Positions 3,775 to 53,860 of a stretch of DNA of 64,000 nucleotides are shown one piece after another. The stretch is from NCBI GenBank assembly GCA_964596375.1, contig CAZQTO010000001.1:916-64915 (forward strand). Direction: 5' to 3'. The notes below the pieces were generated by a model, which saw nothing but the letters and a program-made list of their open reading frames with translations, made no database searches and was not told the origin of the DNA. The stretch's first letter is position 1; every line of letters starts with the position of its first letter. The stretch comes from an uncultured Zetaproteobacteria bacterium (GTDB taxonomy: Bacteria > Pseudomonadota > Zetaproteobacteria > Mariprofundales > Mariprofundaceae). A program made the translations under genes and the position numbers.

Positions 3775-3801
3775 GAGGGGTCTTTCGAGTGATGTTTTGC
3801 T

Positions 3802-3963
3802 TCAGTGCTGCGAGTTCATCATCAGCCTGAGCATCTTCACGTTGATGATGATAAAGCGGATGATCTGCCACGGTATCGAATTGCGCATGTAGCGGGTGAA
3901 ACCCGTCGGTGTGGGCGGGTAATACGTCTGCTCGTAGGGTTCACGGTTGGTTGCTTTTGGCAT
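3802..3963 (-). CDS. 53-aa small ORF downstream of the sqr-like gene (not in the ORF track, below the 60-aa cutoff)
   Basis: ATG at 3963 preceded by GAGGAG at about 6 nt; TGA at 3802-3804. Translation MPKATNREPYEQTYYPPTPTGFTRYMRNSIPWQIIRFIIINVKMLRLMMNSQH with a hydrophobic C-terminal half. Lies 27 nt after the sqr-like stop and just before the terminator. Confidence 0.4.
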   Translation of the reverse strand: MPKATNREPYEQTYYPPTPTGFTRYMRNSIPWQIIRFIIINVKMLRLMMNSQH

Positions 3964-3990
3964 ATCTCTCTCCTCGATTCGTATTCTTGT

Positions 3991-5448
3991 TTAGTCCGGC
4001 ATGTACGACCAGCCGGGCTTCATCTTCGACTGGTACATGAAGGTGTAGTGCAGGACGTACTTCATCCAGTGTCCGGCCAGACCGACTTCGCCGGTGGTCA
4101 GTGACAGGTCGCGTCCGTATGCCGGATACTTCACGAAGTCCGGCACCACCGGATAGACGGTCATCGAAACCGCACTGCCGCGGAATAGGTGTGAACCCGT
4201 GGAGGCCATGCAGGCAGCACCCATCTCAGCCATGGAGGCATGGTGGGTCGGCTTCTCGGCGCCATTGACCATGTCGCGGATGCTCTTGGCCACGTTGACG
4301 GCCATAGCGGCGGAAGGCATGCCGGTGCGCGGTGGGGTGGGGCTGATCGGTGTACCGTTGGTGCTCTTCATCGGCTTGCTGATCGGGTGTGGTGGGGCGA
4401 ACGCGATGCCGATGGCAAACAGATTCTTATAGATCGGGTTCTGGTAGGTCTTCGGCCAGTCTTCGGCACTCCACTCCTCGTAGGGGCGCGGCGTGTAGTC
4501 GCCGTCCACCTTCAGGAAGCCGTTCGGGGCGAACAGGGTTGCAGTGATGTCCTCGCCTTTCTTATCGAAGGCATTCAGGCCTACGCCGGCGAATGGCGGG
4601 ATGAGCATCGAGAAGTCGAAATCGAGTTCGCCCATGCTGCCGTCGAGCAGTTCGTAATGAATCTTGCCCGGTTCGATCTTGCTGACATGGGCACGGGTGA
4701 TCCACTCGATGTCGCGCTCCACCATCAGCGATTCGGAGAAGGTCTTGGCGTTGGTCACATAGCCGCCGCGCTTGATATGCACGCCGCCCATACCGAAATC
4801 ACCCAGTTCGTACTCGTTGCTGATCCAGATGATACGTGCTTTGTCGCGTACGCCGGCCTCGCGCAGCGTGTGATCGACGTTATAGGTGTACTCGAATGCT
4901 GCGCCCTGGCAGGTGCACATGCCATGGCCGGTACCGATGACGAAGGTGCGCTCCTCGCCTTTCTTCATGGCCTCGATCTGTTCCTGCAACTTTTCGTTGG
5001 CCTCCAGAGCATGTTTGGCGGTACACACGGAGACCGTGTAGCCATTATCCGGGCCGAGGCCTTCGGTGGCGTTGAAATTCAGCTTAGGCCCCGTGGCGTT
5101 TATCAGGTAGTCGTAAGTGATGGTGTCTTGCTGGCCCGTACGCGCTTCGTCGGTGAACTCGACGGTGACGTAAGGGGATGCGCTGTCCTTGCTTCCCTCC
5201 GGGTGGATAGAGATGCCCTTGGCCTGATGGAAGGTAATGCCAGCCTTGTCGTACACCTGCTTCAGGTCGAAGGTCACTTCCTCCTCGGTCATATCGCCCA
5301 CGCCGACCCAGATGTTCGACGGGATCCAGTTCCACTTGGCGTTGGGGGAAACCACAACGACCTCGTGTTTCTTGCCGATCCACTTGCTCAGGTAGCGGGC
5401 GGCGGTGTGTCCGGCAATACCGGCTCCCAAAATAAGTACGCGTGCCAT
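3991..5448 (-). CDS. sqr: sulfide:quinone oxidoreductase-family FAD flavoprotein
   Basis: N-terminal dinucleotide fold VLILGAGIAGHTAA. Cys contexts GMCTCQGAAFEY and MGAACMAS resemble SQR redox cysteines. 485 aa, long for the family, so the subtype is unresolved. Confidence 0.65.
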   Translation of the reverse strand: MARVLILGAGIAGHTAARYLSKWIGKKHEVVVVSPNAKWNWIPSNIWVGVGDMTEEEVTFDLKQVYDKAGITFHQAKGISIHPEGSKDSASPYVTVEFTDEARTGQQDTITYDYLINATGPKLNFNATEGLGPDNGYTVSVCTAKHALEANEKLQEQIEAMKKGEERTFVIGTGHGMCTCQGAAFEYTYNVDHTLREAGVRDKARIIWISNEYELGDFGMGGVHIKRGGYVTNAKTFSESLMVERDIEWITRAHVSKIEPGKIHYELLDGSMGELDFDFSMLIPPFAGVGLNAFDKKGEDITATLFAPNGFLKVDGDYTPRPYEEWSAEDWPKTYQNPIYKNLFAIGIAFAPPHPISKPMKSTNGTPISPTPPRTGMPSAAMAVNVAKSIRDMVNGAEKPTHHASMAEMGAACMASTGSHLFRGSAVSMTVYPVVPDFVKYPAYGRDLSLTTGEVGLAGHWMKYVLHYTFMYQSKMKPGWSYMPD

Positions 5449-5567: not shown

Positions 5568-7196
5568 TCAGGCAGAAAGGATCTTTGCGGCAGCCTTGAG
5601 GCCGTCGACGGCTGCGGAGACGATGCCGCCGGCATAGCCAGCACCTTCACCGACGGGGTACAGGCCTTTGAGCGATACGGACTGCATGCTGTCGTCGCGG
5701 CTGATGCGCACGGGGCTGCTGGTGCGGGTTTCGCTGGCCAGCAGATTGGCTTCATCGGTAAGGTAGCCGCGCATGCGGCGATCGAAGCCTTTAATGCCTT
5801 CGGCCAGTGGTGATGCAATCCAGTGCGGCAACAATTCCCACAGATCGGCAGGAACCACGCTGGGTTTGAAGCGGCAGTTGGCCAGCGTGCCGCTGGCCTT
5901 GCGGTTCACGAAGTCTGTTAAACGCATGGTGGGGGCGGCATATTGGTTTCCGGCCATCTTGTAGGTGGCACGTTCGATCTCGCGCTGGAAATGAACGCCG
6001 GAAAGCGGGTGTGCAGTGATACCGTGGCGTTCAATATCCTCGGGGGTGACCTGTACCACCAGGCCCGAATTGGCGAATTCGCCGGATCGTTTGGCGTTGC
6101 TCATGCCGTTCACGGCCATGCCTCCCTCTTCAGTGGGAGAGGGGACGATCAGCCCACCCGGACACATGCAGAAGGAATAAACGCCGCGTTTGCCCAGATG
6201 ATCGTCGGGCACCTGATGCGTCGCCGCGTATTCGGCGGCACCGAGCGCCGGATGACCGGCCTTGGCCCCGAACTGGATGGCATCAATCAGCGCCTGCGGA
6301 TGCTCGGCACGCACGCCGACGGCGAAGGCTTTGGCTTCCAGATGAATGCCCAGCTTGTGCAGATGTTCGTAGGTGTCGCGTGCCGAATGGCCTGTGGCGA
6401 GAACCACGCAATCGCCATCGATCTCGGTTTCGCTCTCTTCGCTGTCTGCCACCCGCACACCGCACACTTTGTCGTCCTTGGTGAGCAGGGCATTCACGCG
6501 CGCGCCGAAGCGGTAGTCCACACCAAGTGATTCGAGGTGGCCGCGCATATTGCGCACGATGCGCACCAACCTGTCGGTTCCCAGATGCGGGTGGGCATCG
6601 ATCAGGATGTCATGGGCCGCACCGAAGCGTACAAAGGTGTGTAACACATTGCGCACCAGCGGGCTCTTGATGCGCGTGTACAGCTTGCCATCGGTATAGG
6701 TACCTGCACCGCCCTCGCCGAAACAGATATTGCTTTCAGGATTGAGCTCGCCACGCGAACGCAGACGACCGATATCGCGCATTCTCTTTTCCACCGGCTG
6801 GCCGCGCTCCAGCAGCGTAACGCGCAAGCCGCGCTCGGCCAGTTCCAAGGCTGCAAACAGACCGGCAGGGCCTGCACCGACCACAATGGCATGTCTGTCG
6901 TCGGACTGTTTAACGGGTAGGGCAGGGGTATCAAGCGCGGATGCCTTGATAACTCGCAACTGCATAGCCGGATCATTGATCAATTGTTTTGGCAGGGGGC
7001 CAGGCAGGGTAAACTCATAGGAACAGACGAAGTGGATATTGCTCTTCTTGCGCGCATCCAGCGCCTTGCGCACGCGAACACATTTGGCGATGTCAGCCGA
7101 TTGAAGGCCCAGCCGTTTGGCAAGTCTGCTGCAAACGGAATCATCGTCCTCATCGAGTCCGACGTTCAGGTTGGCAATGCAATAGCGAATGGTCAT
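5568..7196 (-). CDS. FAD-dependent dehydrogenase (COG2509-type)
   Basis: VVGAGPAGLFAALELA FAD fold and overall similarity to uncharacterised NAD(FAD)-utilising dehydrogenases. Start taken at MTIRYCIANL; the ORF is open up to 7244. Confidence 0.8.
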   Translation of the reverse strand: MTIRYCIANLNVGLDEDDDSVCSRLAKRLGLQSADIAKCVRVRKALDARKKSNIHFVCSYEFTLPGPLPKQLINDPAMQLRVIKASALDTPALPVKQSDDRHAIVVGAGPAGLFAALELAERGLRVTLLERGQPVEKRMRDIGRLRSRGELNPESNICFGEGGAGTYTDGKLYTRIKSPLVRNVLHTFVRFGAAHDILIDAHPHLGTDRLVRIVRNMRGHLESLGVDYRFGARVNALLTKDDKVCGVRVADSEESETEIDGDCVVLATGHSARDTYEHLHKLGIHLEAKAFAVGVRAEHPQALIDAIQFGAKAGHPALGAAEYAATHQVPDDHLGKRGVYSFCMCPGGLIVPSPTEEGGMAVNGMSNAKRSGEFANSGLVVQVTPEDIERHGITAHPLSGVHFQREIERATYKMAGNQYAAPTMRLTDFVNRKASGTLANCRFKPSVVPADLWELLPHWIASPLAEGIKGFDRRMRGYLTDEANLLASETRTSSPVRISRDDSMQSVSLKGLYPVGEGAGYAGGIVSAAVDGLKAAAKILSA

Positions 7197-7307
7197 TGCG
7201 GCATACTCACCGAGGCACTTCGTGTTGTCATGGCTAAACCTCACGCACGATTGCAGATGGTGCTGTAATACTTCATTCTATGGTCAGTTAGTCGATTAGG
7301 GGGTGGG

Positions 7308-7934
7308 ATGAGAAAAGCTGATATTATCAAGAGGCACGATGAATTTTTTTATACAGTCGAGTGGTATGAGGGTTTTCTTCAGAAAATCATCTCGGCTAGG
7401 AGAGTTTTAGGGGATGCTGAGGTTAAAAGAGAATTGGCCGAATCAATTATCTTGAGACTTTGCGCTCATTGGGAGTACTACATTGACGAACTCTTGATCG
7501 CATGTGTGAATCGAGATCATTCAAAATTGTCAGAGTTTTTTGGTGTAACTATTCCAGAGCACCCCTCACAGGAATTATGCCAAGCACTTATTTTCGGGGA
7601 CGGATATCGCGATTTCCCCTCGTTCGGTGCATTAAAAGGTTTCTCGAAAAAGATTTTGAAAGAAGAAAGTAATCCTTTCCTTAGCATTCAAGGAGAAAAC
7701 TGGAAACTGATTGATGAGGTTTACGCAATTAGAAATTACCTTTCGCACTATAGTCGAAAGGCGCGGCGGTCTTTGTTCCATATGTACAAATCTAATCACC
7801 AAATGAGTCGCTTCTACGAACCGGGTCAATTCTTACTTGCCTATAATGCCAGTCGTTTTGATGATTATTTCAGAGCTTTTGCTGGCGCATCTAACGATAT
7901 GAAGATTTGGCTTGAAACGGGAGGGGGAAGTTAG
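7308..7934 (+). CDS. AT-rich orphan protein with HEPN-like Rx4H motif
   Basis: 208 aa, predicted all-helical by eye. AIRNYLSHY (R142-H147, nt 7731-7748) fits the HEPN Rx4-6H signature. Spot G+C counts of two 60-nt lines gave 35% and 40%. Lies on the opposite strand to both neighbours. Confidence 0.55.
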   Translation: MRKADIIKRHDEFFYTVEWYEGFLQKIISARRVLGDAEVKRELAESIILRLCAHWEYYIDELLIACVNRDHSKLSEFFGVTIPEHPSQELCQALIFGDGYRDFPSFGALKGFSKKILKEESNPFLSIQGENWKLIDEVYAIRNYLSHYSRKARRSLFHMYKSNHQMSRFYEPGQFLLAYNASRFDDYFRAFAGASNDMKIWLETGGGS

Positions 7935-7950
7935 TCTCAAGATTCACTGC

Positions 7951-7979
7951 AACAAGGGCGGCCATTGGCCGCCCTTGTT
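7951..7979. terminator. perfect 13-bp palindromic hairpin between convergent genes (hairpin family copy 1)
   Basis: AACAAGGGCGGCC-ATT-GGCCGCCCTTGTT, flanked by the stops at 7932-7934 (+) and 7981-7983 (-). Confidence 0.75.
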
Positions 7980-7980
7980 G

Positions 7981-8748
7981 TTATAGCTTGGCTGCTGCGA
8001 TGCGGCGCAGGGTCGGCACCTCAAGCCCTGCTTCATCGGCTATGCTCAGCGCGCGATCAAGGCGTGCCGGGGCCGAGCGACCCATGCAGCCGTGTTCGGG
8101 GTCGCCGTCGAAGGCGGCGAGCATGCCTTCGATCAGTGTCGGGCGGTCGAGCTCCTGCCCGGTCAGATGCTCCTGGATATCGAGCACATCGCCGGCCACT
8201 GCGCAGGCCAGGTCGTTGTGCTTAAGCCACAGGTCGCGCACATTGCCGCCGGATTCGAGGCCGGCGATGTTGGTGGTCAGGATGTAGAGATTCTTGAGAA
8301 CAAGCTCAAACAACAGTTCATTGTCATCTGCCAGTTCGCGCACAGGGATATCGAGCGAACCCAATGCATCCTTAAGCAGCGGCGCAAATTCGCCGTAGGC
8401 AGGGGAGGCAATCACCACCTTGGAATCCATGCCCTTTTTCTTCTCGAACCACACGGAGACCACTGTCGGCTTGCTTAAACCATGTTGTCTCCAATCGCGC
8501 GGCAGTAACTCGTTCTGCAGTAGGACCAGGCGGTCACACCATGCATCCGGCAGATCGGCCAGTGTGGCTTGCAGGTCCTTCTCGGCGACGGCCACGATGA
8601 CCATTTCGGGCTCAGGCACTTCATTAGCCACGATGCCCAGATCCATATCGCGTGTGACCGGTACAATCGGATAGCCAAGGCGCATGAATCCGCGCGCAAA
8701 CACCGATCCGATCTCACCGATTCCTATGACTACCACTGGTTTGTGCAT
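7981..8748 (-). CDS. NAD(P)-binding Rossmann-fold protein, ketopantoate-reductase-like (tentative)
   Basis: N-terminal VVVIGIGEIGSVFARGF glycine-rich fold. 255 aa. High G+C like the core genome (one 60-nt line counted at 70%). Confidence 0.45.
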   Translation of the reverse strand: MHKPVVVIGIGEIGSVFARGFMRLGYPIVPVTRDMDLGIVANEVPEPEMVIVAVAEKDLQATLADLPDAWCDRLVLLQNELLPRDWRQHGLSKPTVVSVWFEKKKGMDSKVVIASPAYGEFAPLLKDALGSLDIPVRELADDNELLFELVLKNLYILTTNIAGLESGGNVRDLWLKHNDLACAVAGDVLDIQEHLTGQELDRPTLIEGMLAAFDGDPEHGCMGRSAPARLDRALSIADEAGLEVPTLRRIAAAKL

Positions 8749-8779
8749 ATCTGTCTCCTATGATCGCGCGAATGCTAAC

Positions 8780-8808
8780 GAAAAGAGCGGCTAATGGCCG
8801 CCCTTTTC
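8780..8808. repeat. palindromic hairpin, family copy 2, located in a divergent 5' region
   Basis: GAAAAGAGCGGC-TAATG-GCCGCCCTTTTC (one mismatch). Same GGCGGC...GCCGCCC core as copies 1 and 3. Confidence 0.7.
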
Positions 8809-8913
8809 ATTACAGGGCGTTTAGGACTAGATTCCATTTTGTTCTAGGGGAGCACTGCATTTAGCAAGCTGTCACCGTAATTCGATTCCGGATTGGTGAT
8901 GATGGGAGTTTAT

Positions 8914-9981
8914 ATGGTTAAGTTTGGCATAGGTTGTTTTGTCTTCGGTTTCAAAACACCCGTTGAGACTTCCTTAGCAGAATATAAGGACAAGCTTAAG
9001 GAGGCCTTGGAAAGAATCTCAAACATTAGTGCTGTTGATATTACAATTTCCAGTGATTATCCGATTGTTTGGGATGAGCGGGTTGAGCCGATAAACGACT
9101 CTGGAATCGGGATGAACCTTTCTGATATCAATATTACTTTCAGCTTGCATATTCCATTTAGGGTTCAAAAGGAATTATTCGATAGGCCGCTTAATTGTGG
9201 TGTGGAAGACTTTGTTGTTGAAATTGAGTATGGATTCCATGGCCCATTTACAACAATTGTTCCCGTCGGATGTGGGGCAGATAGTAAACCATCCGATGCT
9301 GTTATTTGTGTCAGGGAGTTTCTGCGAAAGAATTTTTCTGATGACCTTCTTAGGTTTGAGAACCTAGGTCCATCCCCATTTCACGCAAACTTTGTGCTTT
9401 CCCCTGGAAATGATGATGCACAAGAAAATTTAGTGGCAGATGTAAGAAAAAAGAAAGGGTATGATGAAATACGATTTCTATATCCACCATCGGGAAACAG
9501 TGAAGATGCCTTTTCTGAAGTATTGTATGAACTTTCTAGTGAGTTGAGCCTATTCTACAACCAAGAGGCTCATAGATCTTATTCTTATCAACAATGGGAT
9601 GAGTTGCAGAAAAGAATCGACAGTTACTTATCTATTCCTCCCAAGGGGTTCGTAATGGAGTCAATTAGGAATCTAAAGGACCGTCACACCATTGATGCCT
9701 TAATAGTTGACCTCGCAAAGTTTAAATTTGAAACAATCCAATATTCATCTTACATCCAGATGACAATGGGCAATATATATGACGGTGGTGCGTATAAAGG
9801 GTATCTGAAATTATACAATGAAGGAATACGGCCAATCATGGAATATCATCCTGATGACGTAGTTGCGACTCTTAAGTTTATATCTGAACGAAGAAACAAA
9901 AGCTATGAAATTCTTATCGGACTGCTTTCAGGTCTGTGCGGAGGAATAATAGGGTCACTCCTGATGATTTTATCTAGCTAG
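8914..9981 (+). CDS. AT-rich orphan protein with a single C-terminal transmembrane helix
   Basis: Start chosen at ATG 8914 (GGGAG 6 nt upstream); the ORF is open from 8893. 355 aa, no recognisable domain. C-terminus ILIGLLSGLCGGIIGSLLMILSS. Spot G+C of 60-nt lines ranged 27-52%. Confidence 0.55.
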   Translation: MVKFGIGCFVFGFKTPVETSLAEYKDKLKEALERISNISAVDITISSDYPIVWDERVEPINDSGIGMNLSDINITFSLHIPFRVQKELFDRPLNCGVEDFVVEIEYGFHGPFTTIVPVGCGADSKPSDAVICVREFLRKNFSDDLLRFENLGPSPFHANFVLSPGNDDAQENLVADVRKKKGYDEIRFLYPPSGNSEDAFSEVLYELSSELSLFYNQEAHRSYSYQQWDELQKRIDSYLSIPPKGFVMESIRNLKDRHTIDALIVDLAKFKFETIQYSSYIQMTMGNIYDGGAYKGYLKLYNEGIRPIMEYHPDDVVATLKFISERRNKSYEILIGLLSGLCGGIIGSLLMILSS

Positions 9982-10047
9982 CTTTCTACCATTTCATAGC
10001 ATCTCGAATAGCCAGATTGCGGTGAAAGGGTACTAAATGATCAAACA

Positions 10048-10076
10048 ACAAAGGGCGGCCATCAGCCGCCCTTTTG
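10048..10076. terminator. palindromic hairpin, family copy 3, between convergent genes (ettA terminator)
   Basis: CAAAGGGCGGC-CATCA-GCCGCCCTTTTG, between the stop at 9979-9981 (+) and the ettA stop at 10092-10094 (-). Confidence 0.75.
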
Positions 10077-10091
10077 GTCGATGCTTGGCGC

Positions 10092-11762
10092 TTAGGCCAG
10101 CTTTTTGTATTTGATGCGGTGGGGCTGGGTGGCATCTTCACCAAGGCGCTTCTTCTTGTCTTCCTCGTAGTCGGCGAAGTTGCCCTCGAACCATTCAACA
10201 TGGCCCTCGCCCTCGAAGGCCAAAATATGCGTGGCAATGCGGTCGAGGAACCAGCGATCATGTGAGATGACCACGGTGCAGCCTGCGAAATCGAGCAGTG
10301 CTTCTTCCAGCGCGCGCAGGGTTTCGACATCCAGATCGTTGGTCGGCTCATCGAGTAGAAGCACGTTGCCGCCGCTCATCAGCATCTTGGCCAGATGCAC
10401 TCGGTTGCGCTCACCACCCGAGAGTGCCTTGACCTGTTTCTGCTGGTCGCCGCCCTTGAAGTTGAAGCGGCCGCAATAGGCCCGGCTGGAAACCTCGATC
10501 TTGCCCAGGTAAATCGAATCCGATCCGCCGGAAATTTCCTGCCAGACACTGTTGTCACCGTTGAGCGCATCGCGCGACTGATCGACATAGGAGAACTGCA
10601 CGGTTTCGCCGATAGTCAGGGTGCCGCTATCCGGTTTTTCCTGCCCGGTGAGCATGCGAAACAGCGTAGTCTTACCCGCGCCGTTTGCACCGATAATGCC
10701 GACAATGCCGCCACGTGGCAGATTGAAGGTGAGATTCTCCACCAGCATGCGATCGCCGAAGGATTTGCAGACGCCATCGGCCTTCACCACGATATCGCCC
10801 AGCCGTTCACCGGCGGGAATGAATATCTGCTTGGTGGCATTGCGCTCCTGCACATCCTTGTTGGCCAGATCGTCGAAGGCCTTCAGACGGGCCTTGGATT
10901 TGGCATGCCGCCCCTTGGTGCCGGCGCGCACCCATTCCAGTTCCTGCTGCATGGCCTTCTGGCGTGCGGTTTCCTGTTTCTCCTCGACAGCCAGACGCTT
11001 TTCCTTCTGCTCCAGCCACGAAGAGTAATTGCCCTCCCAAGGGATGCCCCGGCCGCGATCCAATTCAAGAATCCAGCCTGCCACATTATCCAGAAAGTAA
11101 CGGTCATGGGTGACGGCGACCACGGTGCCCTTGTAGTCGTGCAGGAAACGCTCCAGCCAGCCTACCGATTCGGCATCGAGATGGTTGGTCGGCTCATCAA
11201 GCAGCAGCATATCCGGGCTTGATAGCAGCAGGCGGCACAGGGCTACGCGGCGGCGTTCGCCACCGGATAGCTTGCTTACATCTGCATTCCAGTCGGGCAG
11301 ACGCAGGGCATCGGCGGCGATTTCCAGTTTACGCTCCAGATCCCAGGCATCGGCGGCGTCGATTGCGTCCTGCAGCTTGCCCTGTTCTTCAAGCAGCTTG
11401 TCAAAATCAGCATCAGGGTCGGAGAATTTCTCGCTGATGGCGTTGAACTTGTCGAGCAGGTCTTTGGTTGCGGCCACGCCTTCTTCGACATTGCCACGCA
11501 CATCTTTATTCGGATCAAGCTCCGGCTCCTGCGACAGAAAGCCGATGCGAATGCCGGGGGCAGGGCGTGCTTCGCCGACAATATCCTCATCCAGCCCCGC
11601 CATGATGCGCAGGAGCGTGGATTTACCCGCGCCGTTTAAGCCCAGCACGCCAATCTTGGCGCCGGGGAAAAAGGAGAGATAGATATCCTTGAGGATTTCA
11701 CGCTTGCCGGCGACGGTCTTGCCGACGCCCTGCATGGTGTAGATATACTGATAATCGGCCAT
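10092..11762 (-). CDS. ettA: energy-dependent translational throttle ABC-F ATPase EttA
   Basis: Two ABC cassettes with Walker [10 protein letters not shown] and GANGAGKTT, and signatures LSGGERRR and LSGGERNR. N-terminus [15 protein letters not shown] is typical of EttA. 556 aa. Confidence 0.95.
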
Positions 11763-11966
11763 GGTTCACTCCGGATGTGTAAATAGGGCTGCGCAGGATA
11801 ACAGAATGCCCGCAGGCGAACAGCGGGGCAGGCGTTGCTGCATAGCTATGAAGAAAGAGAATCTAAACGACACGGACACTGCAGGAACATCCGGTATCGG
11901 GCGAGCGCTTGGCAAACATGCTACAATGAACCTGTGCATCAAGGACGAAACGTGGGGGGGAATGGT

Positions 11967-12170
11967 GTGATTCCTGTAGAGAAGATACGAAGACGCGCGA
12001 AAGAAATCGGCCTCCCCGATTTTGAAAATATGGAGAAAGGAGACCTCATCAGGGCTATTCAACAAAGGGAGGGCCATGATGCCTGTTTTGATGCTCCCTG
12101 GTGCAATCTGTGTACACGCGAGGATTGTGCATGGAGGGAAGATTGCCGCTCCGTTGGCATCGGTTTTTAG
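11967..12170 (+). CDS. small protein with Rho_N/SAP-like N-terminus and Cys-rich tail
   Basis: GTG 11967 preceded by a G-rich RBS. Translation (M)IPVEKIRRRAKEIGLPDFENMEKGDLIRAIQQ then CFDAPWCNLCTREDCAWREDC. 67 aa. Confidence 0.4.
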   Translation: MIPVEKIRRRAKEIGLPDFENMEKGDLIRAIQQREGHDACFDAPWCNLCTREDCAWREDCRSVGIGF

Positions 12171-17692: not shown

Positions 17693-20566
17693 ATGGCCAG
17701 GCAGGATTCAAAGGAACATTCAGCGCATATCGCAAGCAGGCCCGATGGTCAGTGGATCCGGGTGCGCGGCGCGCGGGTACACAACCTGAAAAACATCAGC
17801 CTCGATCTGCCGCGCGACAAACTGGTGGTTATTACCGGGGTGTCAGGCTCCGGAAAATCCTCACTGGCTTTCGATACCTTGTATGCAGAGGGACAGCGGC
17901 GCTATGTCGAATCCCTTTCCGCTTATGCCCGTCAGTTTCTCGGCATGATGGAGCGCCCGGATGTAGATGCGATTGAAGGGTTGTCGCCGGCTATTTCCAT
18001 CGAACAGAAGACGACCAGCCGCAATCCGCGCTCGACAGTCGGCACCATTACCGAGGTGTACGATTACCTGCGTCTGCTGTTCGCACGCATCGGCAGGCCG
18101 CACTGCCACAGTTGCGGCAAACCGATCGCCGCATCCAGCGCCAGCCAGATTGTTGATGAATTGGAGAAGCTGCCGGATGGCAGCCGCCTGCAATTGCTAG
18201 CGCCGATAGCGCGAGGCCGCAAGGGAGAGTTTCGCCGTGAGCTGGACAAGGCCGGTATGGACGGCTTTGTGCGCGTGCGGGTGGATGGCGAGATCATGCA
18301 GATCGAGGATGTGCCGCACCTGGAGCGTAACAAGAAACACGATATCGAGCTGGTGGTGGATCGTCTGGTGCTCAAGGACGGGCTGCGCACGCGTCTGGCC
18401 GACTCTGTGGAAACCTGTCTGCGCTACGGTGACAGTATGCTGATGGTGATGCTGGATGAGCAAATCCTGTCTTTCTCCGAGCGTTTTGCCTGCGCCGATT
18501 GCGGCATTTCCTATCCGGAGATTGAGCCGCGCCTGTTTTCCTTCAATTCCCCGGCAGGGGCCTGTCCGGCCTGTGACGGCCTGGGTTCGAAAACCGTGTT
18601 TGACCCCGATCTTATTGTCCCCGATGCCGGAAAGTCACTGAAACAGGGGGCGATTGCTCCATGGTCTGGTAAGGAAACACCGTTCTTCCAGCAGACCATG
18701 GATGCCGTTTGCCGGCATCTGAAAATCGATATGAATTGCCCTTTCGGCGACTTGACCGAGGATGCGCGCCACTTCCTGCTTTACGGTTCTGATGGCAAGC
18801 GCATTGCTTTTCATTTTCATGATCGTGGATCGGTGCGCGAGGTGCTGCGACCCTATGAGGGGGTGATTTCGGGCCTGGATCGGAAGTACCGTGAAAGCAC
18901 ATCGGATGAAGTGCGCGAGATGCTGTCGCACTACATCAACGATATCCCCTGTCCGGTTTGTAGCGGTTCGCGCCTGAATCTGGCGGCACGGCATGTATTG
19001 ATTGCAGGCCTAAGCCTGCCGGAACTGGTTGAGATGCCGCTGCGTCACGCTCAGTCATGGGTGAATGAGCTGCAACTGGGGGAGCAGGATGCCGCCATTG
19101 CCGGCCGCGTGCTTGAAGAAGTGGCAGCGCGCCTTGGCTTTATGATCGAGGTCGGGCTGGATTATCTGAGCCTGCATCGCACTGCCGGAACCTTGTCCGG
19201 TGGTGAGGGCCAGCGCATCCGCCTGGCAACCCAGATCGGTTCGGCGCTGGTTGGTGTGCTCTATATTCTAGATGAGCCATCTATCGGGCTGCATCAGCGG
19301 GACAATGAGCGTCTTTTATCAACCCTGGAGCGATTGCGTGACCTGGGTAATTCAGTGCTGGTTGTGGAGCACGATGAAGACACCATCCGACGGGCCGACT
19401 GGGTGGTGGATATGGGGCCGAGAGCCGGCGAGCATGGCGGCGAGGTGGTGGTTGCCGGGCCCGTTCAGGAAGTGTTGCAGCATCCGGACTCCCTGACTGC
19501 GAAATATCTCAACGGCTTAAAACATATCCCCCTGCCTGAGCGCCGGAGAGTTGCTGAAGGCCACCCATGTATCGGCTTGCTCGGGGCGCGGGCCAATAAT
19601 CTGCAGCATGTGGATGTGTCCTTTCCACTAGGCAGATTGAGTTGTGTTACCGGTGTTTCCGGTTCCGGAAAATCCACGCTGGTGCTGGATACCCTGTATC
19701 GAGCTTTTGCCCGACGCACGCGCATGGTCCGCGAGCGGGTGGGGGCCTATGACGATCTGATTGGCGCGGATCTGGTGGATAAGGTGATCGATATTGATCA
19801 GAGCCCTATCGGGCGAACTCCGCGTTCTAATCCGGCTACTTACACGGGTCTGTTCACGCCGATTCGCGATCTTTTCGCGCAGCTTCCAGAGGCGCGTGCG
19901 CGCGGTTACAAGCCGGGTCGATTTTCTTTCAATGTGAAGGGAGGGCGTTGCGAATCCTGCGAAGGGGATGGCATTATCCGTGTGGAGATGCATTTCCTGC
20001 CGGATGTGTATGTGCACTGCGAAACCTGTAACGGCGCGCGTTACAACCGGGAAACACTGGATATCCGATACAAGGGCAAGAGCATTGCCGATGTGCTCGC
20101 CATGACGGTGGACGAAGCGGCGGAATTCTTCGCGCATATCACCAGCATTCAGCACAAGCTTGAAACCCTGCAGCAGGTGGGTCTGGGTTATATTCGTCTG
20201 GGTCAGTCGGCCACCACCCTGTCGGGCGGAGAGGCGCAACGCATCAAGCTTGCCAAGGAGTTGGCTCGTCGAGCCACCGGCGACACCCTGTACATCCTGG
20301 ATGAGCCGACCACAGGCCTGCATTTCGACGACGTCGCCAAACTCCTTGATGTGCTGCATGCATTGGTGGATCGCGGTAATACGGTGATCATCATCGAACA
20401 CAATCTGGAAGTGATTAAAACCGCCGACTGGATGGTGGACATGGGGCCGGATGGCGGGGACCGCGGCGGTCAGGTGCTTGTTGCCGGCACACCCGAACAG
20501 GTTGCGGTCTGTACAGCCTCGCATACCGGGCACTACCTAAAGCCGTATCTGAAAAAGCCTGCATAA
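17693..20566 (+). CDS. uvrA: excinuclease ABC subunit A
   Basis: [59 protein letters not shown], two ABC modules and zinc-finger Cys clusters. 957 aa. Confidence 0.97.
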
Positions 20567-52287: not shown

Positions 52288-52974
52288 ATGAAGAACACAA
52301 TTAAACAAATTTCCCTGATGGCTTTCGGAAGCGTCGCATGGTTGGTGTGTGCGGTTGCCTTGCCGATGAATCAGGCAACGGGTACCGATGGCTTGATGGC
52401 CAAGGTGTCGAATCTTGTTATCACTCAGGCTTATGCTGAAGATGACAAATCCAAGTCCGATGATGAAGGAAAATCTGACGACAAGTCCAAGTCCGATGAT
52501 GAGGACAAGTCCAAGGATAAAAGCTCTTCAAGTTCATCGAGCAGTTCTACAACGCTGGTTTGCAAAAGCAAAACCACGGTTGAGTCATGGTTTAGCGACA
52601 GTGAGTCCGAGGTCACGTCTGACGAGGGCAAGTCTAAGGATAGCGAGTCGAAGTCGGACGACGAGTCCAAGTCCGATGATTCAGCCAAATCCGACGATGA
52701 GTCCAAGTCCGATGACGACAAGTCGAAGGACAGCGAGTCCAAGTCCGATGACGACAAGTCGAAGGACAGCGAGTCCAAGTCTTCCGACAGTTCTACAATC
52801 CTCACCTCGCTCGACACCTGCAAAGTCCTCTTGCCTGGCGGCGGCACGGAAGATGGATACTGGGTTCCTGAGAATGTAAGTAATGGCGATGACCTGACTA
52901 CTTACATTGATGGATCAGGCCCTACTACCCCTGACAGTTCGCTGGAGTCCTATCGCGAAATCCGCGGCGAATAA
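52288..52974 (+). CDS. secreted/exported protein P1, unknown family, with K/S/D/E low-complexity core
   Basis: AAGGAGG-N6-ATG. Hydrophobic N-terminus ISLMAFGSVAWLVCAVALP with no prepilin motif. Residues 51-168 are almost entirely K, S, D and E. C-terminal block shared with P2. Confidence 0.6.
   Translation: MKNTIKQISLMAFGSVAWLVCAVALPMNQATGTDGLMAKVSNLVITQAYAEDDKSKSDDEGKSDDKSKSDDEDKSKDKSSSSSSSSSTTLVCKSKTTVESWFSDSESEVTSDEGKSKDSESKSDDESKSDDSAKSDDESKSDDDKSKDSESKSDDDKSKDSESKSSDSSTILTSLDTCKVLLPGGGTEDGYWVPENVSNGDDLTTYIDGSGPTTPDSSLESYREIRGE
52711..52782 (+). repeat. 2 x 36-bp near-perfect tandem repeat inside P1
   Basis: GATGACGACAAGTCGAAGGACAGCGAGTCCAAGTCC occurs twice in tandem (35/36 identical), encoding DDDKSKDSESKS twice. 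Confidence 0.9.
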
Positions 52975-52995: not shown

Positions 52996-53026
52996 AGCAC
53001 CCCGGGCAACCGGGGTGCTTTTTTTA
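52996..53026 (+). terminator. rho-independent terminator after P1
   Basis: AGCACCCCGG-GCAA-CCGGGGTGCT followed by TTTTTTT. Confidence 0.85.
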
Positions 53027-53195: not shown

Positions 53196-53807
53196 ATGAA
53201 CAAGACAAAAAAACACATTTTTTTCCTATTTTTCGGCAGCGCGGTATGGGCGCTTTGCTTTGCTGTACACCCTGGGAGTCAGCTGCAAGGCTTCGATAGC
53301 TTGCCGGGCATACAGATGAATATCGGTCAAGCTTATGCAGTAGACTTCAGCAATGATGAGCTGGTTTGCGTAGACAGGGAATCGGTGACAACCACGGTGG
53401 GATTTGACGTGAGCAATGACGATAAAATGTCTACAACCAGCACAGTGCTTTGCCATGTTTCGCATGGTAAAGGAGGCAAAGATCATCAAACGCTGACCTT
53501 GCCGGACGTCGCAGTGTCCAAGCACATGGATAAGCATTCGGACGATCATCTGGGCTCATGCGGCGGTACCGAGGCACCTGACCCGACCACATCAGTGGAC
53601 ACAGCGTGCATCGATTCCTTGCCGGGGTGTACGGCTCTGGGTGGAACGGCAACGAATGGTATCTGGGTTCCCGAGAGCGCGGTTAATGCCGACGGCACAG
53701 TGAATGTAACCATGCTTGATGATTACTTCACACAAACATGCTCAAGCGGCGCCAGCGGTATCCCGGACAGCATGCATAGATCCTACCGCGACATACATGG
53801 CAAATAA
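53196..53807 (+). CDS. secreted/exported protein P2, paralogue of P1 without the repeat tract
   Basis: AAGGAG-N6-ATG. N-terminus IFFLFFGSAVWALCFAV. Shares the IGQAYA, LVC and C-terminal CIDSLPG...NGIWVPESAVNADG...PDS..SYRDIHGK blocks with P1. Confidence 0.6.
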   Translation: MNKTKKHIFFLFFGSAVWALCFAVHPGSQLQGFDSLPGIQMNIGQAYAVDFSNDELVCVDRESVTTTVGFDVSNDDKMSTTSTVLCHVSHGKGGKDHQTLTLPDVAVSKHMDKHSDDHLGSCGGTEAPDPTTSVDTACIDSLPGCTALGGTATNGIWVPESAVNADGTVNVTMLDDYFTQTCSSGASGIPDSMHRSYRDIHGK

Positions 53808-53829: not shown

Positions 53830-53860
53830 GGCACCCCGAAGAACCGGGGTGCCTTCTTCT
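53830..53860 (+). terminator. rho-independent terminator after P2 (same stem core as the P1 terminator)
   Basis: GGCACCCCG-AAGAAC-CGGGGTGCC followed by TTCTTCT. Confidence 0.7.

Follow-up and report, generated by a model that had tools for sequence, protein, structure and literature searches.

A hairpin- and REP-like-bordered gene slot beside ettA in a groundwater zetaproteobacterium, with the gene for a predicted tail-anchored protein as its apparent present cargo

Why should an AT-rich gene of foreign appearance lie between two copies of the same palindromic hairpin, right next to a core gene? The question is raised by a stretch of 64,000 nucleotides (nt) from an uncultured Zetaproteobacteria bacterium (GenBank assembly GCA_964596375.1, contig CAZQTO010000001.1, positions 916 to 64,915), here called the window, meaning the whole stretch and not the gene under study. 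In it, the open reading frame (ORF) termed ORF355 sits between ettA and a second core gene, p255. An initial annotation had taken ORF355 for an orphan gene that may have inserted into or next to the ettA terminator, duplicating the hairpin, and may form a split pair, perhaps for defence, with a HEPN-like gene on the other side of p255. We favour a different answer, to which we assign a probability of about 60%: the locus would consist of old slots, bordered by hairpins and by repeats resembling repetitive extragenic palindromic (REP) elements, that have been refilled with various single genes, some of them of defence type, ORF355 being one such cargo, most likely with an abortive-infection-type role. 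The features of the first slot are as follows; L-numbers, here and below, denote the relative loci that were compared.

7981–8748, minus strand: p255, an unnamed, Rossmann-like core gene of normal G+C content that follows ettA throughout the Zetaproteobacteria
8778–8806, no strand: H2, hairpin copy 2, imperfect; slot 1 border on the p255 side
8807–8857, no strand: framework spacer of 51 nt that separates H2 from the left repeat; L227 and L246 have homologous sequence
8858–8882, plus strand: IR-L, REP-like 25-mer CATTTAGCAAGCTGTCACCGTAATT; two mismatches to the family consensus
8914–9981, plus strand: ORF355, slot 1 cargo, with a predicted alpha/beta domain, helical stalk and C-terminal transmembrane (TM) anchor
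10015–10039, minus strand: IR-R, REP-like 25-mer, inverted, CATTTAGTACCCTTTCACCGCAATC; five mismatches to the family consensus
10048–10076, no strand: H3, hairpin copy 3, perfect 10-base-pair (bp) stem at 10050–10074; border of slot 1 on the ettA side, 15 nt past the ettA stop codon
10092–11762, minus strand: ettA, core ABC-F gene for the energy-dependent translational throttle (TIGR03719, E = 1.7e-299)

Read inwards from ettA, the slot thus begins with the ettA stop codon, 15 nt, H3, 8 nt and a 25-nt repeat; it ends with the inverted repeat, 51 nt, H2, 29 nt and the p255 start. IR-L ends 31 nt upstream of the ORF355 ATG, and IR-R starts 33 nt past its stop codon. Two hairpins do bracket the gene, within 2 nt of the coordinates first given for them, and the foreign character ascribed to it holds up as well. 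ORF355, which has an ATG start with GGGAG at 8904–8908 and encodes 355 amino acids (aa), is indeed AT-rich, with a G+C fraction of 0.393 against a 1-kb mean of 0.541 (sd 0.034) for the window (z = -4.4), and its G+C at third codon positions is 0.36 compared with 0.69–0.71 in ettA, p255 and the FAD-dependent gene beyond. The two lowest 1-kb G+C bins of the window are those of ORF355 and of the HEPN-like gene, HEPN208, and no further low-G+C island exists in the rest of the 64 kb. Moreover, all 80 genome loci with p255 lack ORF355. Horizontal acquisition is therefore well founded. What the initial annotation overlooked are the inverted 25-nt repeats, the other cargo that relatives carry within the same borders, and the protein family to which ORF355 belongs.

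It is the relatives that point to a slot older than its content. The order of ettA and then p255 is kept in about 24 zetaproteobacterial loci with a variable intergenic gap. Slot 1 is empty in L001, L009, L011, L013, L223, L225 and L226, with a spacer of 30–33 nt and no hairpin. It is likewise empty, with one family hairpin, in L003, L005 and L230 (gap of 78–82 nt in L003 and L005), so that relatives with ettA, a single hairpin and p255, which had been proposed as a check of the insertion model, do exist. In marine Mariprofundus, the ettA–p255 gaps measure 1–5.6 kb and are filled with ordinary co-directional genes. Closer relatives came from a p255 scan of metagenome contigs, p255 being 84–90% identical in these; the ettA 3′ parts of L221 and L227 share 98% protein and about 88% DNA identity with the window. 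Several of these lineages differ from the window on both sides of p255, where a second slot is found:

5568–7244 as listed, minus strand: FAD-dependent gene, which borders slot 2
7308–7934, plus strand: HEPN208, AT-rich cargo of slot 2, the interval between p255 and the FAD-dependent gene
7950–7980, no strand: H1, hairpin copy 1, perfect 14-bp stem; it abuts the p255 stop codon and starts slot 2

In the sense of ettA, L221 reads ettA, hairpin, a 239-aa AT-rich gene, hairpin, p255, hairpin, a 245-aa AT-rich gene and the FAD gene. L227 has ettA, hairpin, a 311-aa gene, a degenerate hairpin and p255, with the FAD gene following directly (slot 2 empty), and L246 has a hairpin, a 227-aa gene, a hairpin and p255. 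L224 shows a hairpin, a 150-aa gene, p255, a hairpin, a 162-aa gene plus a TrmO-like gene, and the FAD gene. Some of this cargo can be named. The 311-aa protein in slot 1 of L227 combines AbiJ_NTD4 and DUF7014 and matches PADLOC family PDC-S32, the slot 2 cargo of L221 combines MUG113/T5orf172 with HNH_repeat and matches PDC-S57, the 239-aa protein of L221 has a weak DUF5677 match, and slot 2 of L224 holds a membrane protein; for the other cargoes in relatives, Pfam and PADLOC gave no identity. In L001, p255 is directly followed by the FAD gene, which represents the empty state of slot 2, and HEPN208 is absent with p255 abutting the FAD gene in L225, L226 and L227 as well. In L002 (identical to L229), the occupant of slot 1 is a membrane ORF of 111 aa whose G+C content is normal and which is co-directional with ettA and followed by a single hairpin (7583–7918 of that locus); this ORF has weak Pfam matches only. 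Slot 2 of the same locus (8776–9997) carries three minus-strand ORFs of 99, 117 and 191 aa, the last of which resembles the TrmO-like gene of L224.

The points at which homology to the window stops coincide with the border elements. On the p255 side of slot 1, homology ends at 8807, the outer edge of H2, in L221, L222 and L224, and at 8880/8881, the cargo-facing end of IR-L, in L227 and L246; on the ettA side, it ends at 10031–10050. In slot 2, it ends at 7951, the outer edge of H1, in L222 and L224. The spacer between H2 and the repeat is of a different type in L221, L222 and L224, and cargo orientation varies between lineages. Orthologous copies of H3 are present in L221, L224, L227 and L246, copies at the H1 position in L221, L222 and L224, and the hairpin on the p255 side of L221 equals H2 over 27 nt, mismatch included. 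By alignment, H3 retains the native flank on the ettA side and H2 the native flank up to the p255 ribosome-binding site; the 3′ flank of H2 (ettA sense) also aligns with the single-hairpin relatives L003 and L005. Judging from these comparisons, the slot borders are conserved and their content is not, and ORF355 appears to be the present occupant of an older slot, since L221, L227 and L246 have the same borders around other genes, in L221 with an identical H2. In a neighbour-joining tree of p255, filled and empty lineages are interleaved.

Metagenome reads add a view of the empty state. In runs X1–X3, reads join position 8736 to 10105 with 55 letters between the aligned parts, which corresponds to a spacer of about 30 nt and no hairpin. 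These insert-skipping reads come from a relative that is about 90% identical and several hundred times more abundant (in run X3, an assembler depth of 2252 vs about 4–6 for the window population); no read with an empty or inverted slot was found within the window's own population. A separate observation concerns L006, L015, L016, L022, L023 and L055 from marine Mariprofundus, whose ettA–p255 spacers of 77–187 nt carry another small palindromic insert with ends like ACCGCAAAGGNCGCAAAGG...CCTTTGCGNCCTTTGCGGT; the ettA–p255 spacer is therefore a place where small palindromes have landed repeatedly within the class.

The hairpins themselves share AAG(A/G)GCGGC...GCCGCCCTT, and H2 and H3 are 90% complementary over 29 nt. 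The motif AAGRGCGGC occurs nine times in the window with 1.8 expected, six of the nine inside H1–H3, and just two of the 15 perfect hairpins in the 64 kb whose stems reach at least 8 bp share this stem, namely H1 and H3 (H2 being imperfect). The concern voiced earlier that the hairpin might be too abundant does not apply in the window: all three copies fall in a stretch of 2.3 kb, with no further one in the remaining 61.7 kb, a clustering that no shuffle attains, and chance bracketing of ORF355 is therefore excluded. Elsewhere, more than 120 unrelated genomes have the 23-nt pattern AAGGGCGGC-N5-GCCGCCCTT in single copy, which marks the hairpin as a generic terminator type. Fold energies range from -19 to -29.8 kcal/mol (z = -3.2 to -6.2), the lowest being that of H1 (-29.8 kcal/mol, z = -6.2), and H2 folds better as minus-strand RNA (-24.6 vs -19 kcal/mol). 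Scanned with a terminator consensus, H3 is picked up on the minus strand and H2 on the plus; in all copies, the G+C-rich stem lies between an A-run and a T-run, so that both strands read as a stem plus U-tract. H1–H3 fit the sequence definition of an intrinsic (Rho-independent) terminator and are putative terminators of this kind. Across 16 hairpin copies, seven base pairs are changed on both sides; the covariation score lies above all 500 shuffles and the number of doubly changed pairs is attained by 6 of 500, which lends modest support to the stem being under selection. Convergent genes end on either side of H1 and of H3, and a terminator working in both directions is a sensible reading there. 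H2 has divergent starts on its two sides, a place in which, as the initial annotation had remarked, a terminator has no evident use, and it is best read as the retained border copy on the p255 side. In contigs of two aquifer runs, part of the population has small insertions (AG, C) in the H1 loop at 7963–7965, which indicates micro-heterogeneity of the hairpin loop. A search of the locus against Rfam gave only spurious microRNA-hairpin matches.

Where did the hairpins come from? They probably arrived with the slot and are not the ancestral terminator of ettA, because marine outgroups and several close relatives have a tight, hairpin-less ettA–p255 spacer and filled and empty lineages are interleaved; the 30–33-nt spacers in these relatives cast doubt on the earlier description of copy 3 as the natural ettA terminator. 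An extension of the hairpin duplication into the ettA stop region (CCTAAGCGCC vs CCTAAACGCC) was rejected as not significant, its score being attained by 158 of 500 shuffles; read by eye, the equivalent stretch of L227 and of L246 likewise matches the ettA stop region of its own locus, which is a hint only. The idea that the hairpin travels with the cargo genes was also discarded: neither the closest HEPN208 relatives (70–78% identity) nor six loci with ORF355 homologues have a flanking pair, and L088, checked in this context, has one hairpin with a GGGCGGCC stem, upstream only.

The inverted 25-nt repeats between the hairpins and ORF355 became visible when the borders were compared side by side. 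A scan of 2.57 Mb found the 25-mer at these slot borders only; a third copy, at 18423 inside a 957-aa ORF, was taken as chance. On the ettA side, the repeat stands 5–8 nt from the hairpin in every filled lineage, and the same distance separates a repeat from the hairpin after p255 in L221; on the p255 side of slot 1, it is 48–55 nt. Copies at the IR-R position were found by the scan in L224, L227 and L246 and, more diverged, by eye in L221. L224 has one repeat only.

Beyond this locus, a pattern derived from the 25-mer has more than 120 matches in reference genomes of Alpha-, Beta-, Gamma- and Zetaproteobacteria. The consensus CATTTAGTAAACTGTCACCGTAATT is nearly identical across these classes, which is unusual for REP-type repeats. 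Loci selected by the motif hold 248 copies in 806 kb, up to eight per 8 kb. Where a minus copy is followed by a plus copy, the inner gap is 30–59 nt in 24 of 37 pairs (40–49 nt in 16 of these), and such doublets fold into near-perfect hairpins of about 93 nt. Loci L301–L420 show perfect palindromes of about 93 nt between genes (e.g. L309, 3099–3191, and L360, 4943–6257), and L339 has tandem arrays of one 25-mer arm (3786–4681). A 198-aa ORF beside one copy proved to be an IS200-like Y1 transposase (Pfam Y1_Tnp, E = 5.6e-12); Y1_Tnp homologues are present at about 40 of 120 motif loci vs none in 2.5 Mb of control sequence, and the repeat flanks the Y1 gene in minus-then-plus order at fixed distances in 13 of 16 full-length cases. 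By these features, the family appears to follow the pattern of REP/REPIN elements and their REP-associated tyrosine transposases (RAYTs). We call the 25-mer REP-like, and not a classic REP, because it is not self-complementary and has no GTAG or CGTC tag. The window has two copies in 64 kb, 1.1 kb apart and in plus-then-minus order, which do not form a doublet; their cargo-facing ends correspond to the outer ends of the family's doublets and Y1-transposase units. Rfam returned only spurious microRNA-hairpin matches for the palindromic doublets, and a literature text search for the 25-mer string gave unrelated primers only. When reference genomes were scanned for hairpin and repeat combined (GCCGCCCT, 4–14 nt, ATTTAGTAA), the pattern proved too loose, matched unrelated phyla and was dismissed as noise.

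What, then, is the gene that presently fills slot 1? ORF355 has one hydrophobic segment, at residues 331–353 or thereabouts, two residues before the protein end (windows 331–337 alone exceed a Kyte–Doolittle 19-residue mean of 1.6). The single C-terminal TM helix described before is thereby reproduced, and with no N-terminal signal or TM segment, ORF355 is predicted to be a tail-anchored membrane protein. The label of an orphan does not hold. A word-indexed search gave 40 unnamed relatives at 25–39% identity, and a profile run against 1.84 billion representatives of clusters at 50% identity matched 999 clusters at E ≤ 1e-3, 599 of them at E ≤ 1e-30. Among the best 150 relatives listed, nearly all are about 360–400 aa long and match over nearly their full length, with no extra domain. 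ORF355 thus appears to stand for a large, uncharacterised and unannotated protein family. Conserved in it are FGxGC(8)FxF, IP(81)FR(83)VQ(85), PS(127)DAV..VR(134)EFL, LGPSPFH(157)AN, Y183, Y215 and the C-terminal GGxIGS, the GGxxG of the TM helix; C8, R83, Q85 and the motif GPSPFH (152–157) are invariant in the alpha/beta domain, and the TM helix with G343 and G347 is conserved across the family. AlphaFold models the full-length protein with a mean pLDDT of 85.7 and a pTM of 0.80 (88.9 and 0.87 for the N-domain alone), as an alpha/beta domain (1–190), helices at 196–239 and 249–289, and a final helix at 313–354 with the TM segment at its end. The best Foldseek match, 6d7y_B (E = 1.5e-3), was rejected as a fold match for its TM score of 0.29–0.35 and rmsd of 11 Å. 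Pfam searches with each of 23 family members, and the alignment profile run against PDB sequences, gave nothing usable, and ORF355 matches no PADLOC-DB 2.0 family at E ≤ 1.

The neighbourhoods of ORF355 homologues were examined in eight contexts. In two related ones, the gene has an MmeI-type restriction-modification gene on one side and a YhcG-like nuclease on the other; helicases, SIR2_2, AbiEii and DUF3800 are nearby. In another, it lies among HicB, DUF433/DUF5615 and AbiEi genes and transposases; one is near a UPF0175/DUF3368 pair, one beside a prophage-like block and one beside an insertion sequence (IS). In all eight, the homologue is a single gene with no conserved partner, and in the four G+C-rich hosts examined, it is always poorer in G+C than its flanks. 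These features suggest a stand-alone, horizontally moving gene. From contexts and model together, a single-gene abortive-infection-type protein is our best guess at its role, at a little under even odds. In such a protein, the cytoplasmic alpha/beta domain would sense infection or process a phage cue, and the stalk with its TM helix of small residues would drive oligomerisation in the membrane, followed by membrane damage.

HEPN208, the second AT-rich gene, was originally proposed to form a defence pair with ORF355, split by a core gene. Its G+C content is 0.408 (z = -3.9), and it contains RNYLSH, an Rx4H motif characteristic of a HEPN domain, with weak Pfam matches below the gathering cut-off (HEPN_RiboL-PSP, 1.1e-5; HEPN_Apea, 0.0029). 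It belongs to a strongly conserved family of at least 314 clusters, with 55–78% identity across phyla and separate from that of ORF355. Its relatives adjoin HipA, a fragment of a type I restriction subunit and the reverse transcriptase of a group II intron. The last of these (RVT_1 + GIIM) is encoded on the opposite strand beside a 72%-identical relative in L218 (1367–3895), and in L219 a relative lies upstream of an HSDR_N_2 gene. A co-occurrence check found no HEPN208 relative within about 8 kb of ORF355 homologues in five sequence contexts. Because of this, and because the two slots are filled independently in sister lineages, HEPN208 appears to be independent cargo of slot 2 and not a partner of ORF355; the proposed pair falls away.

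How might such slots be emptied and refilled? Recombination between the two hairpin copies could remove the cargo and leave the single-hairpin state of L003 and L005, which may be a scar. Replacement could proceed by recombination in the repeats, the hairpins or the core-gene flanks, with DNA from other bacteria. Three routes fit the data. One is recombination in the core-gene flanks, as proposed for the minimal mobile elements of Neisseria, whose exchange is thought to use recombination in the conserved flanks after DNA uptake. Another is recombination within the conserved 25-mers or hairpins, a route that would account for the loss of homology right where the repeats face the cargo. The third is the action of the Y1 transposase of the 25-mer family. 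Once cargo is in place, the hairpins may act as two-way transcription terminators that insulate a foreign gene facing against the ettA–p255 operon.

Other accounts of the locus have to be weighed against this one. That the three hairpins are unrelated, ordinary terminators alike by chance would agree with the single copies of the AAGGGCGGC-N5-GCCGCCCTT pattern in more than 120 unrelated genomes; it is barely conceivable given their clustering within 2.3 kb, matched by no shuffle, and the orthologous copies with position-specific flanks at the same three positions across lineages. The original model, taken at its word, in which ORF355 inserted once into the terminator of ettA with the hairpin as target-site duplication and with HEPN208 as the other half of a two-gene defence pair, draws on the single-hairpin relatives L003 and L005, on the two native flanks retained by H3 and H2 and on the AT-richness of both genes. 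It is largely refuted by L221, L227 and L246, where both hairpins surround other cargo and the H2 of L221 is identical down to its imperfection; in addition, the outgroups have no hairpin after ettA, the extended duplication is not significant by the shuffles given above, and HEPN208 relatives stay away from ORF355 homologues while the slots fill independently. What survives of it is a foreign gene, single-hairpin relatives and native flanks; the duplication of the hairpin predates ORF355, and the model as a whole is quite improbable. Improbable, too, is a non-autonomous transposon akin to a mobile insertion cassette, in which the 25-mers would be the terminal inverted repeats of the cargo, a transposase would act in trans and sites beside terminator hairpins would be hit independently in each lineage. 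Inverted 25-mers do bracket the cargo in the window, L221, L227 and L246, its orientation varies, and the repeat keeps its fixed 5–8 nt from the ettA-side hairpin. However, reading the sequences reveals no target-site duplication outside the repeats, L224 has only one repeat, and the window, L227 and L246 share by descent the 51-nt spacer outside IR-L around cargo that differs. The cargo-facing ends are, moreover, the outer ends of the family's doublets and Y1 units, a geometry that would place the cargo outside the mobile unit.

Site-specific capture in the manner of an integron would have a circular cassette, made of cargo and a palindromic element with the hairpin in its loop, integrate at a chromosomal hairpin and leave one hairpin on each side. 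The topology (hairpin, 51 nt, repeat, cargo, inverted repeat, 8 nt, hairpin) fits exactly, and a filled slot 1 equals the single-hairpin state plus one hairpin. Even so, we hold this to be very improbable: the cargo genes and adjoining ORFs that were examined, a screen that did not extend to the remainder of the window, include no integrase or recombinase, the hairpin lacks RYYYAAC/GTTRRRY core sites, extrahelical bases and a length of 57–141 nt, cassettes occur in both orientations, the long-gap doublets of the family have no such hairpin in their loop, and slot 2 gains its hairpin from a hairpin-less empty state. An extended version of our own reading is unlikely. It would make the cross-class 25-mer and the duplicated terminator hairpin a portable recombination handle for a REP-based, integron-like exchange of single genes, many of them for defence, by homologous recombination or the Y1 transposase, with ORF355 as cargo and founding member of a new membrane-anchored abortive-infection family. 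Whatever gene two such repeats enclose in one bacterium could, under this version, move into a prepared slot of another, between core genes and insulated from their transcription. A more serious contender, though still on the unlikely side, concerns the role of ORF355, which might be a membrane-anchored accessory enzyme, a stress protein or a gene derived from a phage or mobile element (for exclusion or addiction) that hitch-hikes in variable regions. No defence model matches it, two contexts are of a housekeeping kind, another has prophage-like genes next to it and yet another an IS, and the invariant Cys/His/Arg set could be catalytic. On the other hand, homologues sit in restriction-modification and toxin-antitoxin islands of several unrelated genomes, a sister lineage has an AbiJ-like gene in the same slot, the gene is always single with no conserved partner, and neither 50,697 phage records nor 72,556 plasmid records contain it.

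Several findings weigh against the refilled slots and the defence role that we prefer. Slot 2 of the window has no detectable 25-mer or remnant of one, and with no Y1 gene and only two repeat copies, the window gives no sign of current RAYT activity. Exchange within the population was not observed, the sole empty reads coming from another relative, and the p255 tree is unsupported, with sequences about 78–81% identical, so that the order of gains and losses is uncertain. As for function, ORF355 has no match in Pfam, PADLOC, PHROGs or NCBIfam, and Foldseek searches against PDB (full length and N-domain) and BFVD found no structural relative, so that the case for defence comes from gene neighbourhood; two of the eight contexts are plain housekeeping surroundings. 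ORF355 was found in no RNA run, one metatranscriptome having a fragment of p255 only.

The host and the remaining features of the window can be dealt with briefly. The source of the window is a zetaproteobacterium of groundwater: the highest shares of the window were found in aquifer and groundwater metagenome runs, and the nearest genome loci by p255, a gene with a weak Pfam match to F420_oxidored, are metagenome-assembled genomes of Zetaproteobacteria (Mariprofundaceae-like) with at most 87% amino-acid identity. For the FAD-dependent gene, the listed GTG start at 7244 probably lies upstream of the true one; ATG 7196 is likelier, L001 and other relatives starting the gene at the equivalent of MTIRYCIANL, and this start would leave 111 nt to the HEPN gene. 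A small ORF upstream of ettA (11835–12170) has a Cys-rich tail and a weak match of Rho_N type (E = 0.054); its conservation beside ettA in L223 (82% identity over residues 41–111) makes it a probable genuine core gene. A second pair of look-alike hairpins, 52996–53019 (AGCACCCCGG...CCGGGGTGCT) and 53830–53853 (GGCACCCCG...CGGGGTGCC), trails two tandem paralogous ORFs, one hairpin each (52288–52974 and 53196–53807), which encode signal-peptide proteins with the C-termini SYREIRGE and SYRDIHGK; the pair is apparently the product of a common kind of tandem duplication that took the terminator along.

ORF355 is a concrete candidate, testable at little cost, for an anti-phage protein of a new type, encoded by one gene and with a membrane effector, because its family is unannotated, its confidently predicted fold matches nothing solved, its homologues lie in restriction-modification and toxin-antitoxin islands and its slot is shared with an AbiJ-like gene. 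The locus also shows unusually clearly how a tiny hotspot is built and refilled. If the repeats are indeed exchange points, REP/REPIN elements would gain a role in gene flow that is not known to have been described; if exchange occurs only via the core-gene flanks, this would be an ordinary, though tidy, hotspot.

Among known systems, REP/REPIN elements and their RAYTs resemble the 25-mer family in forming inverted doublets with a short spacer in extragenic DNA and in standing on both sides of a single IS200-like Y1 gene. Classic REPs are species-specific, and we know of no published picture in which REPs border a swappable gene slot. REPIN doublets and repeat-flanked RAYT genes have been described (PMC3116915, PMC3337134, PMC5581495), each REP being a small imperfect palindrome with a GTAG or CGTC tag (PMC3733652). 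The 25-mer, in contrast, is near-identical across classes and not a tagged mini-hairpin, and in the window it is present twice, as solitary copies separated by 1.1 kb whose outer ends are turned towards a gene, while a RAYT gene is missing there. As to the hairpins, H1 and H3 resemble bidirectional intrinsic terminators in lying between convergent stops with a G+C-rich stem flanked by an A-run and a T-run; H2 differs by its place between divergent starts.

Integron cassettes, in turn, share with these slots the single, promoter-poor genes that each have one palindromic element (attC) and the variable content at one site. An identity with attC was rejected, since reading of H1–H3 and of the 25-mers revealed no attC core sites (R''/R') and the stems are perfect, G+C-rich, of terminator type and about 30 nt long; cassettes lie in both orientations, one per slot and not in an array, and no IntI was seen, the window not having been scanned protein by protein. 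Nor do the elements look like Xer dif/pdif modules: dif sites are 28 nt long, with two 11-nt arms around a 6-nt spacer, whereas the hairpins have G+C-rich arms of 10–14 nt and a 3–5-nt loop and the 25-mer is without dyad symmetry. A terminal-repeat transposon with target duplication was likewise discarded, its defining features being absent. With single-gene abortive-infection proteins of the AbiJ and HEPN types, ORF355 has in common that it stands alone, moves horizontally and occurs in defence neighbourhoods, an AbiJ-like gene being found in the same slot (L227) and a HEPN gene in the adjacent one; it differs in having no similarity to them in sequence or fold, with an alpha/beta domain, a stalk and one C-terminal TM segment.

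The closest likeness is to defence hotspots and to the minimal mobile elements of Neisseria (Saunders and Snyder 2002, as cited in PMC1538595). In these, as here, alternative whole-gene cargo lies between two conserved genes, with no mobility gene inside. Two differences stand out. Here the slot has internal borders, a terminator hairpin and a REP-like 25-mer on each side, at which homology ends, and the lineages compared are species-level, with DNA about 80% identical, not strains of one species. As expected of such a hotspot, slot 1 holds ORF355, an AbiJ-like gene, genes of 239, 227 or 150 aa, the 111-aa ORF or nothing, and slot 2 holds HEPN208, a T5orf172 protein, a membrane protein, three other ORFs (L002) or nothing. 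The locus is a variant of the hotspot or minimal mobile element, a pair of small, old slots flanking the core gene p255.

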